A stretch of 64,000 nt of DNA from positions 992,001-1,056,000 of the forward strand of contig CAXXDV010000001.1 of NCBI GenBank assembly GCA_963674745.2, written 5' to 3'. Under the pieces are notes generated by a model. That model worked only from the letters and a program-made list of their open reading frames with translations, was not told where the DNA came from and searched no databases. Source of the stretch: Desulfosudaceae bacterium (GTDB lineage: Bacteria; Desulfobacterota; Desulfobacteria; Desulfobacterales; Desulfosudaceae). Below, piece by piece: positions 48,558 to 53,740 of this stretch. The position numbers and the translations under genes are program-made. The stretch's first letter is position 1. Each line of letters opens with the position of its first letter.

Positions 48558-50906
48558 TTAGACGGCAAGACTGCTTCGGGCGATGATCTCGTCTTTCATC
48601 CGGGGAGAAAGGTCATTGAAATAGGCGGCATATCCGGAAACACGCACCATCAGATAGGGGTGCAAAGAAGGGTTGTCCCGGGCTTGCCGCAGGGTTTCAG
48701 GGTCGAGCATATTGGCCTGCACCTGCATGCCGCCGCGATCAAAATATACACGGAAAATACTGCCCAAAGCGTTCTGGCCGGCCGCGTCCCGCATGTTTAA
48801 GGCATTAAATTTAATGTTGAAATTAATACCGTTGGCCGTTCCGGTAAAATCAAGGCGGTTCATGGAGTTGACCAGGGCCGTGGGACCCTTCCGGTCCATG
48901 CCGTTTTCCGGGGCAATGCCCGAGGCAAAAGGCTCTCCCCGCCGGCGTCCGTTGGGCAGGGCGCCCACAAAACCGGCAAAATGGATGTGGGTGGTATTGG
49001 AGTAGAGACCGGCCGTGTAATTACCCCCGCGGGTGTTTTTGCCCAGGCCGTTTATGGCATCGATATAATCGTCCAGTACGAAACGGGTCCATTGATCCGC
49101 TTCGGGAGCATCGTTGCCGAATTTTTCCAGTCGGCGCAACGTAACCCGTACCTTTTCATCGGCCAGATCCGCCCGGAGACGCTCCACCAGATCGATCAGC
49201 GCCATGGATTTATTGATAAATACTATATTTTCAATAGCATAAAGGGAATCACCGACAGTGGTAATGCCCACGCCCTGGATGCCGGAAAAATTATAAACCG
49301 CCCCGCCGGCCGTAGAATCAACCCCTTTCTCCAAACAACCGTCAATGAGCATGCTGGTCAGCGGCGTGGGATGAAAGGCGGCATGAGCCCGTTCAACCGC
49401 CTTAAGATCGATTTTCAGTTTATCCAGCTGGTGCCGGAGCTGGGTTTTATAGGCCGCAGCCACGTCGTTCATGGTACGCATTTGTGAAACCGGCGGCGTA
49501 ACCGCGCCCAGACGTTTTTTTACGCCGAACTGTCGTCCCTGATTCAAGGCCAGTTCCAGGGCCAGGGGCATGTTGATGATGGCGGCGTCGGTCGATCCCA
49601 GGGTTTTTCCCTGGGAAGTGGGCTCCACACACCCGATGGCCGTATAGTTTCGGGCATCGGTCAGGTTATAGCCGGCCTTGAGCATGGCGGCGATAATAAT
49701 TTCATCATTATACAGGGCCGGGGCGCTGCCGGTACCGGTGGATACCCGCACCACCTGATCGTAAAAATCCGGCGGCGTGTTCCTGTGCAGGCGAATGTGG
49801 GAATTGGGCTGCCGCATGCGCAGTTCGTCGATAAGTTCGAGCAGGATAAAGCTGAGTTCGTTGGTGGTATCGTCTCCGTTTTCATCTACACCGCCGATGG
49901 TGACAACCTGGTAACTGGTCAACCCCCCCAGAGTTTTGGCCAGGGTTTGGGGAAAGGCGGGCACGGTTTCATTCAGTTTGATACAAAAGGCCGCCAGGAT
50001 CTCCTTGGCCTGTTCCCGGGTCAAGCGGCCTTCGGCCACGTCTTTCTCATAAAAGGGAAACAGAATCCGGTCCAGGCGGCCCACGCCGAGGCTTTCGCCC
50101 AGGCTCTCCTGAAACATGGTGATGTGGACCAGCAGAATCGATTGCACGGCCTCGAAAAAGGTCCGGGCGCCAAAGCGGGGGACCTGCCGGCAGGCCTGCG
50201 CGATGCGTTCAAGTTCGTTTCTCCTTTGCGGGTCAGTCTCGGAACCGGTCATTTTTTCTGCCAGATCGGCGTACCTTTGGGCAAAATCAATCAGGCCAGA
50301 AGCCGCAATCTCCGCAGCCTGGTAGAATTGATGCTGCTCCGGCCTGCCGGCCTTTTCCTGAAAAGCCCGGGCTTCTTTTAAATACCCGTCCAGACCGATG
50401 GCCAGAATTTTATCATGATTCGGTGTCAAGTGCGAAATACCGCCTGTTTCATAGATCTGATACTGGTTGGCGGTTAATTGACCCCTTAAAAAACGGAACC
50501 GGTCTTTCATGGTGTCAAAAGCCTGCCAGACAATGTTTTTCGTCAACCAGAAGGGAATGGTGGCAAAAAGCTTCCAGCGATCAGCCGGGGTAGTTTCCAG
50601 GGGGTTGAGGTCGCGTTTATGAAAAGTGAAGATTTCGGCCAGCACACTCAACCCGTGTGATTCCGGGTAGATGATGCCGCCAACCCGCCGGGAGGTGTAG
50701 TTGCCCACGACAAGTTCATGGGGATAAATATTAATGCTTTTATTTTCCAGCACATGACGGACCGCTCCGGAAATTCTGACAACCGCGGGTTTTTTCCAGT
50801 GGGCCTTTTTTTTGAAATATTCCGTCCAGAGCAGGGCCCGTTCGGGACAGATACCGGGCACGGCGGATTGAACGGCTTGCTTTAACCGGTTGATACGGTC
50901 TTCCAT
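48558..50906 (-). CDS. Glycyl radical enzyme (PFL2/eliminase type, unknown substrate)
   Basis: GCVEP Cys loop and RVSGY Gly loop; probable ATG at 50906. Confidence 0.92.
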   Translation of the reverse strand: MEDRINRLKQAVQSAVPGICPERALLWTEYFKKKAHWKKPAVVRISGAVRHVLENKSINIYPHELVVGNYTSRRVGGIIYPESHGLSVLAEIFTFHKRDLNPLETTPADRWKLFATIPFWLTKNIVWQAFDTMKDRFRFLRGQLTANQYQIYETGGISHLTPNHDKILAIGLDGYLKEARAFQEKAGRPEQHQFYQAAEIAASGLIDFAQRYADLAEKMTGSETDPQRRNELERIAQACRQVPRFGARTFFEAVQSILLVHITMFQESLGESLGVGRLDRILFPFYEKDVAEGRLTREQAKEILAAFCIKLNETVPAFPQTLAKTLGGLTSYQVVTIGGVDENGDDTTNELSFILLELIDELRMRQPNSHIRLHRNTPPDFYDQVVRVSTGTGSAPALYNDEIIIAAMLKAGYNLTDARNYTAIGCVEPTSQGKTLGSTDAAIINMPLALELALNQGRQFGVKKRLGAVTPPVSQMRTMNDVAAAYKTQLRHQLDKLKIDLKAVERAHAAFHPTPLTSMLIDGCLEKGVDSTAGGAVYNFSGIQGVGITTVGDSLYAIENIVFINKSMALIDLVERLRADLADEKVRVTLRRLEKFGNDAPEADQWTRFVLDDYIDAINGLGKNTRGGNYTAGLYSNTTHIHFAGFVGALPNGRRRGEPFASGIAPENGMDRKGPTALVNSMNRLDFTGTANGINFNIKFNALNMRDAAGQNALGSIFRVYFDRGGMQVQANMLDPETLRQARDNPSLHPYLMVRVSGYAAYFNDLSPRMKDEIIARSSLAV

Positions 50907-51098
50907 GAAAAGAATCCTTGTCCCCGAAGCTGATTTTTCGTTGTCGGGTTTGATTAAGTGGCTAAAAGAACACAGCAACATGATCATACACAATTTATGA
51001 TGTGTTGACAATATGTTAAAAGGTATTAAGTTGTAAATATAAGAAAAACAGTAGGAAATCATTATCGGACCGAAACCGACCTTTAGGAGAAACGAATT

Positions 51099-51269
51099 AT
51101 GAAAGAATTGCTGATTATCTTCGCCATAGTGGGCGCGTATCTGTTATTGCAGCTCGTCATTCTGCCCAAAATGGGTATATCCACCTGAATGCGGTCTGCC
51201 TGTCAGTTGACAGATCAGAAAAACGAAACAAAAAAAGACACGAAACCGGCAGAAACGGTTAGAGAGTAA
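51099..51269 (+). CDS. Candidate small membrane selenoprotein (56 aa, in-frame UGA at codon 30)
   Basis: AGGAG RBS; MKELLIIFAIVGAYLLLQLVILPKMGIST-UGA-MRSACQLTDQKNETKKDTKPAETVRE-TAA, ending 5 nt before copZ; SECIS-like hairpin after the UGA. Confidence 0.7.
51195..51219 (+). promoter_or_regulatory. Putative bacterial SECIS element
   Basis: UCUG-C-CUGUC-[AGUU]-GACAG-AU-CAGA; apical loop 16 nt after the UGA with G at loop position 2 followed by U. Confidence 0.6.
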
Positions 51270-51274
51270 AAAAT

Positions 51275-51478
51275 ATGGAAACACAAACCTTCACCATACC
51301 CAATATATCCTGCGGGCATTGCGTCATGACCATTAAAAACGAGCTTCTGGAACTTGACGGCGTCAAACAGGTCGAAGGCGATGCTGATACCAAAGCCATT
51401 ACCGTTAAGTGGGATGCGCCGGTTGATCGACAGAAAATTCTCGATCTGCTGCGGGAAATCAATTACCCGGCCGACTAA
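51275..51478 (+). CDS. copZ: Copper chaperone (HMA domain)
   Basis: ISCGHC, 67 aa, upstream of the Cu-ATPase. Confidence 0.9.
   Translation: METQTFTIPNISCGHCVMTIKNELLELDGVKQVEGDADTKAITVKWDAPVDRQKILDLLREINYPAD

Positions 51479-51499: not shown

Positions 51500-53740
<2,241 letters not shown>

Follow-up and report, generated by a model that had tools for sequence, protein, structure and literature searches.

Positions 51099 to 51269 (forward strand) of the window, by which is meant the whole 64,000-nucleotide stretch of Desulfosudaceae DNA that was analyzed, are very probably a real gene whose product, a selenoprotein of 56 residues, crosses the membrane once; SelB and a hairpin at 51195-51219 would recode the UGA at 51186 as selenocysteine (Sec). 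By sequence comparison this is a new, widespread and systematically mis-annotated selenoprotein family, with an unusual architecture within known bacterial Sec recoding. An earlier note on this DNA had proposed a hidden selenoprotein here, and the evidence bears it out: the TGA is conserved, Sec and Cys codons alternate at its site, a hairpin is linked to the TGA, and the machinery for Sec is present. None of the outcomes that the note had listed as refuting was observed, since homologs are conserved beyond the UGA, orthologs with Cys occur, and the genome has selA, selB, selD and tRNA-Sec.

The gene and its product

The gene consists of 56 codons followed by a TAA stop codon (51267-51269), and this gene and all the features described below are on the + strand. 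Its ATG at 51099 is preceded, 8 nt upstream, by the ribosome-binding site AGGAG (51086-51090). Codon 30 is the in-frame TGA (51186-51188), which is interpreted as Sec30 on the basis of the in-frame TGA in relatives and its alternation with TGC and TGT outside the phylum. When TGA is translated as U, the product is MKELLIIFAIVGAYLLLQLVILPKMGISTUMRSACQLTDQKNETKKDTKPAETVRE. A single membrane helix, residues 2-24 (51102-51170), is predicted by AlphaFold2 on the family alignment and ends at the invariant Leu22-Pro23. The TGT codon of Cys35 (51201-51203) lies five residues after Sec, and the following residues 36-56 (51204-51266) form a variable, charged tail for which disorder is predicted. The mechanical list of open reading frames splits this gene into separate ORFs of 29 and 26 amino acids.

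The next gene is copZ (51275-51478), whose ATG at 51275 lies 5 nt past the selenoprotein stop codon. Its product is a heavy-metal-associated domain protein with a CGHC motif (PF00403, E = 4.2e-14), and its matches to the NCBIfam CopZ models are under the cut-offs. It is followed by copA (51500-53740), whose 746-aa product is a P-type ATPase of the Cu(I) type, with matches to PF00122 and PF00403; relatives of this protein carry the source name Cu+-exporting ATPase and are assigned by their sources to Desulfosudaceae and Thermodesulfobacteriota, in keeping with a Desulfobacterota host. The small protein itself has no match to PF00403 (HMA), unlike the neighboring copZ product. Because its stop codon is 5 nt before the start of copZ, the selenoprotein gene appears to form one unit with copZ-copA in this genome, and the 5-nt gap suggests co-expression and translational coupling with the copper export genes. 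Full-length translation, which depends on selenium, would then bring ribosomes up to copZ, and the cell probably makes the protein alongside its copper export system. A promoter scan upstream of the gene called no consensus promoter on the + strand. Only two sequencing runs contain the stretch, both of them DNA-like and perhaps its source, and one RNA run contains just a conserved piece of copA; no RNA run of the organism was found.

When the sequence was read again, the positions that the earlier note had given for the ribosome-binding site, the ATG, the TGA, the TAA, the gap to copZ and the hairpin all held, as did its placement of the gene at the head of copZ-copA and its description of one (predicted) membrane helix with a Sec-x4-Cys pair. 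The observation itself, an open frame through the TGA with a hairpin and this spacing to copZ, is confirmed.

Homologs and conservation of the in-frame TGA

Homologs are present in 46 of the 61 genomes of the order sample, which comprised 60 relatives and the source genome and was searched in six frames for matches at E <= 1e-6. One genome has two copies, giving 47 matches. All 47 keep the in-frame TGA, and all of their alignments extend beyond it. The same search returned one partial match at E = 0.002 in which the TGA is also present; its other rows (E > 0.1, without TGA) are noise. In a phylum sample of 401 genomes, with a match threshold of E <= 0.01, 182 genomes have a match, and the in-frame TGA is found in 150 of 150 matches among the matches listed. 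The beginning of the gene is equally constant. In 29 of 30 order loci the start codon is exactly 29 codons upstream of the TGA, and in the remaining one 28 codons; it is ATG in 29 loci and GTG in one. Most order relatives have a GGAG-type site at the same place upstream.

The 30 aligned order sequences all share M1, Q18, L22, P23, G26, T29, U30, C35 and Q36, and conservation is at least 90% at M31 and T38. Conservation thus continues on the 3' side of the UGA, where C35 and Q36 are invariant. The core motif of the order homologs is LP-[KR]-x-G-[IV]-[SA]-T-U-[ML]-x-x-x-C-Q, followed by a variable K/D/E-rich tail, and throughout the family the tails vary in length and sequence with K, D and E abundant. 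The Cys at position +5 is missing in 4 of 40 sampled phylum loci (T-U-[LM]-V-P-…), in which the Sec and the hairpin are still present. The constant residue is therefore the Sec and not the Sec-Cys pair, and these proteins cannot all work through a Sec-Cys redox pair.

The frame past the UGA behaves as coding sequence. Among 66 sequences it has a median of 23.5 open codons (minimum 14), versus 6 and 12.5 in the other two frames, and at least 15 open codons follow the UGA in 65 of 66 sequences in frame versus 20 and 27 of 66 in the others. Third-position variability persists beyond the UGA; the codon of the conserved Cys has entropies of 0, 0 and 0.88 at its three positions.

Relatives with a Cys codon at the Sec site occur outside the phylum. 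DNA for these was taken from a species-level genome collection, in which 472 of 560 candidate stretches were confirmed; the best 80 of the 472 were taken and 79 could be parsed. Since these 80 loci are the top matches to one Planctomycete-type query and include related, syntenic genomes, the counts are not independent. Their record titles are mostly Planctomycetota, with some Acidobacteriota, "Deltaproteobacteria" and Myxococcales. The codon at the Sec site of the 79 parsed loci from the best 80 is TGA in 36, TGC in 33 and TGT in 10, so that Cys orthologs aligned to the UGA make up 43 of 79, and the Cys at +5 is retained. An alignment of the Cys forms has the same layout as the Sec form, with the conserved Cys at +5 invariant. 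Judged from these codons, TGA versus TGC or TGT at one site is a classic Sec/Cys pair.

The family is also well represented in protein collections, in altered form. With an E-value limit of 0.001, a profile search of 1.84 billion cluster representatives found 968 proteins. Fragments of 29 residues that stop at the TGA position are common among them; many others have Trp at the site and were presumably called under a code in which TGA is Trp; and a third group is a distinct Cys form (…G-[IV]-x-T-C-M-S-G-A-C…). A word-indexed protein search with the 56-residue protein gave no match, because gene callers truncate the gene.

A SECIS hairpin linked to the TGA

The hairpin that the earlier note had read as a selenocysteine insertion element is CUGUC-AGUU-GACAG (51200-51213), extended by UCUG/CAGA. 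Its core stem pairs 51200-51204 with 51209-51213, its outer stem pairs 51195-51198 with 51216-51219, and the loop AGUU (51205-51208) begins 16 nt after the UGA with a G at loop position 2. The bacterial SECIS consensus of Zhang and Gladyshev, as summarized in PMC13188914, has a G among the first two loop nucleotides, 16-37 nt past the UGA. The hairpin here matches that summary: its small apical loop starts 16 nt from the UGA, and the G at position 2 precedes a G or a U. The SECIS interpretation is sustained by the exact position of the hairpin and its fit to this consensus, by its association with the TGA forms, and by covariation.

Taken as a single sequence, the hairpin is at chance level in its folding (z = -0.12; of 200 shuffles, 80 fold equally well), and no Rfam family matches it. 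With the hairpin alone at chance level, the case for a selenoprotein rests on the comparison with relatives. The loop lies 16 nt past the UGA in 28 of 30 order loci and is either AGGU or AGUU. One of the two remaining loci has a hairpin displaced by a two-codon insertion and the other has a weaker alternative. Global fold energy does not separate TGA from Cys forms (mean z -0.73 vs -0.31), and a position-specific scan was therefore used instead, in which a hairpin was defined by a stem of at least 5 bp and a loop of 3-7 nt that starts 12-31 nt after the codon and has G in position 1 or 2. Such a hairpin is present in 30 of 30 order TGA forms and 34 of 36 TGA forms from other phyla, but in only 9 of 43 Cys forms.

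The helix also covaries. In an alignment of 29 rows its 8 pairs are 84.5% paired; with the partner columns slid, the figure is 33-62%. In 13 cells both sides have changed, and none of 500 shuffles attains the covariation score. The compensatory changes include pair 15-28, where 21 rows have C-G but 7 have U-A, and pair 18-25, where U-A in 27 rows gives way to C-G in two (L027 and L040), and in both of these Thr38 is replaced by Ala.

Selenocysteine machinery

The source genome has the machinery that decoding of UGA as Sec would require: selB (369.8 bits), selA (607.9 bits), selD (368.6 bits) and tRNA-Sec (75.1 bits) were all found and all exceed the cut-offs. The selD gene of this genome itself has an in-frame TGA. 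Co-occurrence with selA is undiscriminating, selA being present in 59 of 61 order genomes and 371 of 401 phylum genomes. The two order genomes without selA are 61% and 79% complete. Thirty genomes of the phylum sample have no selA match, and several of them hold the TGA form. Five near-complete ones (93-100%) were searched again; none has selA, and all five have a SelB above the cut-off and a tRNA-Sec of 70-75 bits, which identifies them as Sec users.

Predicted architecture and topology

The AlphaFold2 model built on the family alignment has a helix over residues 2-24, with a mean pLDDT of 91 for residues 1-20 and 69 for residues 21-30; in the tail, pLDDT is below 50 over residues 42-56. The mean number of K+R residues is 0.4-0.7 before the helix and 1.8-3.4 in the 20 residues after it. 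Under the positive-inside rule the positively charged flank is predicted to be cytoplasmic, and this excess of K+R after the helix therefore predicts an outside N-terminus, an inside tail and a Sec30 at the cytoplasmic face. At three loci the frame continues without a stop from the tail into a downstream domain, which is a classical thioredoxin in two (L139 and L159) and an SQR-like flavoprotein in the third (L107). It is possible that the downstream gene in these loci has an internal start instead. The in-frame fusions fit a tail on the cytoplasmic side and point to thioredoxin as a possible partner. From the charge counts and the fusions, which are the whole basis of the assignment, the topology would be a short N-terminus outside the membrane, with the tail and Sec30, and mostly also Cys35, at the cytoplasmic membrane face.

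Relationship to known families

The earlier note had not recognized the protein as a member of a described selenoprotein family, and this assessment agrees with NCBIfam 20.0, Pfam-A and the published family list. The 56-residue Sec form gave 0 families in NCBIfam 20.0 at E <= 10 and one match in Pfam-A, at chance level only; the Cys and Trp-read forms belong to no Pfam-A or NCBIfam 20.0 family. Ten representatives from the protein library have no informative source name, nine being nameless and one a 'hypothetical protein', and the ESM Atlas has only a nameless "hypothetical protein" cluster from Planctomycetota (score 0.87).

Two known groups are similar in some respects. The YgaP-like TM domain (PF11127, formerly DUF2892) is a small membrane protein domain whose end motif, P-L-G-I-N-T-C, resembles K-M-G-I-S-T-U here. 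PF11127 has two helices. The present protein differs from it in having one helix and in the placement of the second Cys. Kinship with PF11127, which the LGI(S/N)TC motif suggests, was considered and rejected: there is no Pfam match, a whole-genome search with PF11127 missed the locus, and a profile-profile comparison (hhalign) aligned 8 columns with a probability of 11.5%, so the likeness is of a short motif only. TsoA, the LULAxC-motif selenoprotein (NCBIfam NF045695; PMC13188914, Table 1), is uncharacterized and, as here, has a Sec and a Cys a few residues apart. Its spacing is U-x3-C, whereas here it is U-x4-C; some members of the present family have T-U-L-R-x-x-C, and there is no match to the NCBIfam model even at E <= 10.

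Table 1 of a May 2026 review (PMC13188914), with 119 selenoprotein families, has neither a UxxxxC motif nor a tiny membrane protein. The BSepDB paper (PMC13326102) deals with 111 families that had been reported before and were found by homology, and nowhere uses the word "membrane". A full-text literature search found no description of the family, which Haft and Tolstoy 2025 or supplementary files may nevertheless mention. With other bacterial SelB/bSECIS selenoproteins the family shares the in-frame UGA, Cys-containing homologs and, as in many redox selenoproteins, a nearby Cys. It differs from them in its U-x4-C motif, which is neither UxxC nor CxxU, in its size of 47-69 residues, in its single helix and in having no thioredoxin-like fold.

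Gene neighborhoods and possible functions

The best explanation of the whole, which we hold to be reasonably probable, is that the protein is a selenoprotein whose cytoplasm-facing selenol handles reactive sulfur or soft metals and whose gene is one unit with copZ-copA. The helix of residues 2-24 would anchor the protein and place Sec30, and usually Cys35, at the cytoplasmic face of the membrane. There the selenol could react with thiophilic species that gather at the membrane, among them Cu(I) and other soft metals as well as polysulfide or sulfane sulfur. The products might be adducts of the Se-S or Se-metal type, or a selenenylsulfide formed with Cys35, after which the selenol would be reset by thioredoxin or its cargo passed to neighboring systems. 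Gene neighborhoods are the basis for the narrower proposal that the selenol (or the thiol of the Cys form) captures or relays thiophilic species, and it is put forward tentatively.

The neighborhoods that point this way are mainly those in other phyla. In 52 of 79 such loci at least one sulfur or thiol gene lies within 4 kb. A recurrent operon comprises ArsR, a persulfide dioxygenase-rhodanese (PDO-rhodanese), often twice, sometimes a thioredoxin, the small gene, TauE, an SQR-like flavoprotein and a methyltransferase-DsrE protein. An alternative arrangement has an ECF sigma gene, the small gene and then pumps of the HlyD/AcrB or MacB type or a relative of cytochrome bd subunit I. Within ±4 kb, PDO-rhodanese occurs in 36 of the 79 loci, TauE in 23, HlyD in 19, an ECF sigma factor in 19, thioredoxin in 15, methyltransferase-DsrE in 15, SQR-like flavoprotein in 12, ArsR in 11 and AcrB in 10; these counts come from one query type and include related genomes, and overstate independence. 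The common theme of the neighborhoods appears to be defense against thiophilic stress at the membrane, by reactive sulfur species and soft metals.

Within the phylum one locus per genome was taken from 40 genomes across many families, with 5 kb on each side, and 36 were parsed. No neighbor family occurs in more than 5 of these 36 loci and none of the conserved neighbor clusters is a copper gene. With no recurrent neighbor, the gene behaves in the phylum as a stand-alone unit, and a neighborhood so variable says little about this particular gene.

The earlier note had proposed that the protein binds Cu(I) or reduces it, in partnership with CopZ and CopA. As a dedicated copper protein, it would bind or reduce Cu(I) at the membrane through the Sec-x4-Cys pair and pass Cu(I) to or from CopZ and CopA. 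A selenol and a thiol are a plausible ligand pair for a soft metal. The gene is 5 nt upstream of copZ-copA in the window, the same order is kept in 7 of the 9 gene-carrying genomes of its own family, and one more genome of that family has degenerate copA fragments only. At two loci from other families of the order (L047 and L049) the gene is just after copA, so that copA adjoins the gene in 9 of 30 order loci from three families. The arrangement with copZ-copA downstream is nevertheless limited to 7 of the 30 order loci, which all belong to the same taxonomic family, and 20 of 30 have neither copA nor copZ within 1.5 kb; a congener (G001, L028) has no copZ or copA match in the ~1.4 kb downstream that its short contig covers. 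Together with the lack of a copper cluster in the 36 phylum loci, the sulfur and thiol stress genes and efflux pumps beside the gene in other phyla, and the 4 of 40 phylum loci without Cys35, this leaves the copper partnership, in the form proposed, unsupported. We regard a dedicated copper protein as unlikely; a copper-specific function is a local possibility and not a property of the family.

Transporters are a second frequent association, and the protein, which is barely more than one helix and a short reactive motif, could be a micropeptide that regulates or stabilizes co-encoded transporters (CopA here; TauE, RND/MacB pumps or YeeE elsewhere), with the Sec or Cys as a thiol-stress switch. 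A transporter component (TauE, HlyD, AcrB, YeeE-type or cytochrome bd subunit I-related) is the immediate same-strand neighbor, at less than 400 nt, in 28 of 79 loci from other phyla, and CopA is adjacent in the 9 order loci noted above. Single-helix accessory peptides of transporters include KdpF (of the Kdp P-type ATPase), AcrZ (of AcrB) and phospholamban and sarcolipin (of SERCA). The present protein is like these in its size, its single helix and the location of its gene at the head of or beside a transporter operon, here that of a P-type ATPase. To our knowledge none of the four has a conserved Sec/Cys motif, a sequence relation to them is not expected, and the association with transporters is inconstant in the selenoprotein family. 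In its own phylum the majority of loci lack an adjacent transporter, and a single conserved helix would have to suit unrelated transporter folds. A variant of this reading, that of a modular redox micropeptide whose helix docks onto various transporters while a selenol at the cytoplasmic membrane face responds to soft metals or sulfane sulfur by switching or protecting the transporter, is rather improbable; a general regulatory or stabilizing micropeptide is a little more doubtful still. If the modular form were true, the family would be a selenium-dependent counterpart of KdpF, AcrZ and phospholamban, widespread in Desulfobacterota.

A role as a membrane component of ECF sigma/anti-sigma stress signaling, either as a redox-sensing co-factor or as a member of the regulon, is very unlikely. 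ECF sigma genes are neighbors in two phyla. In 6 of 30 order loci the next gene downstream is one of them, in one case with a zf-HC2 anti-sigma gene after it, and in 9 of the 19 loci from other phyla that have such a gene it is immediately upstream; but no sigma factor adjoins the gene in the window or in most loci, and the tail is too short and too variable for an anti-sigma domain. Other neighbors in the 30 order loci are MobB (5), 4Fe-4S dicluster proteins (5), a rhodanese (1) and a DsbA-like protein (1).

That the TGA is a true stop, which would leave a 29-residue peptide and an RNA element such as a regulator of copZ-copA, or a selenium-sensing leader, can practically be dismissed: gene callers do report many 29-residue forms, the hairpin falls in what would be the copZ leader, and termination at UGA is expected when selenium is scarce, but Cys-codon relatives read through the site into the same conserved Cys, the frame past the TGA is open in 65 of 66 sequences with its codon periodicity kept, the gene and the same hairpin occur in dozens of unrelated neighborhoods, so that it is no copZ leader, and the hairpin is linked to the TGA and not to the downstream gene.

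Significance

If confirmed, the membrane selenoprotein described here would represent a selenoprotein family of unusual form, with about 50 residues, one membrane helix, no thioredoxin fold and a U-x4-C motif. Its reach extends to 182 of 401 genomes of the phylum, 472 stretches of the species-level collection found with one subtype query, and 968 representatives of the 1.84-billion-protein library. It has been missed so far because annotation truncates the gene at the TGA, giving 29-residue fragments, or calls the codon Trp, and methods that rely on annotated Cys homologs or known families probably overlook it. In that case the selenoproteomes of sulfate reducers and Planctomycetes would be systematically undercounted. 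The family would also offer a small, tractable system for studying the preference for selenium over sulfur at a membrane surface, and its neighborhoods point to a link between selenium use and defense against sulfide/persulfide and copper stress.

Selenocysteine genes and the upstream region

The genome carries a clear selB (contig C1, 1156265-1158157) and, in addition, a second SelB-like gene (contig C3, 1795409-1797292) that scored narrowly below the cut-off (239.9 versus 242.25 bits). Its selD (contig C1, 326061-326981) contains an in-frame TGA and is therefore the selenoprotein form of that gene. The small selenoprotein gene shares its upstream intergenic region with a divergent gene (window 48558-51062, minus strand) whose product is a glycyl radical enzyme resembling pyruvate formate-lyase. 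A promoter scan of this region called sites on the minus strand only.

Duplication and gene context in relatives

In one genome of the order the small selenoprotein gene is duplicated in tandem (G054, contig C244, 4657-5013), with about 90 nt between the two copies. In genome G004, which belongs to the same family, the region 3' of the small gene (locus L027, 1440-2187) holds copA only as short pieces in differing frames, and copZ was not detected downstream of the small gene at this locus. The copper operon of G004 thus looks decayed beside an intact selenoprotein gene.

At three loci from other phyla a single stop-free frame runs from the small Sec module into a downstream domain. This is a classical thioredoxin domain on two Planctomycetota contigs (L139, 4001-4558, and L159, 4001-4549) and an SQR-like flavoprotein at the third locus (L107, 4001-5482). 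These reading frames may be natural fusions; a downstream gene with its own internal start is a possible alternative at all three.

Conservation of the core

In the sequencing runs that contain this DNA, contigs from other organisms, 85-90% alike, stack on window 51159-51214 only. This 55-nt core takes in the hairpin as well as the codons for LPKMGISTU-MRSACQLT, and because the contigs stack on it alone, its nucleotide sequence is conserved among members of the community. A subfamily in four of the phylum's genomes (loci L180, L185, L194 and L198) has T-U-[LM]-V-P-x-x-R-Q after the helix, in which the Cys five residues after Sec is absent and a SECIS-like hairpin is retained, which indicates that Sec alone is the constant residue.
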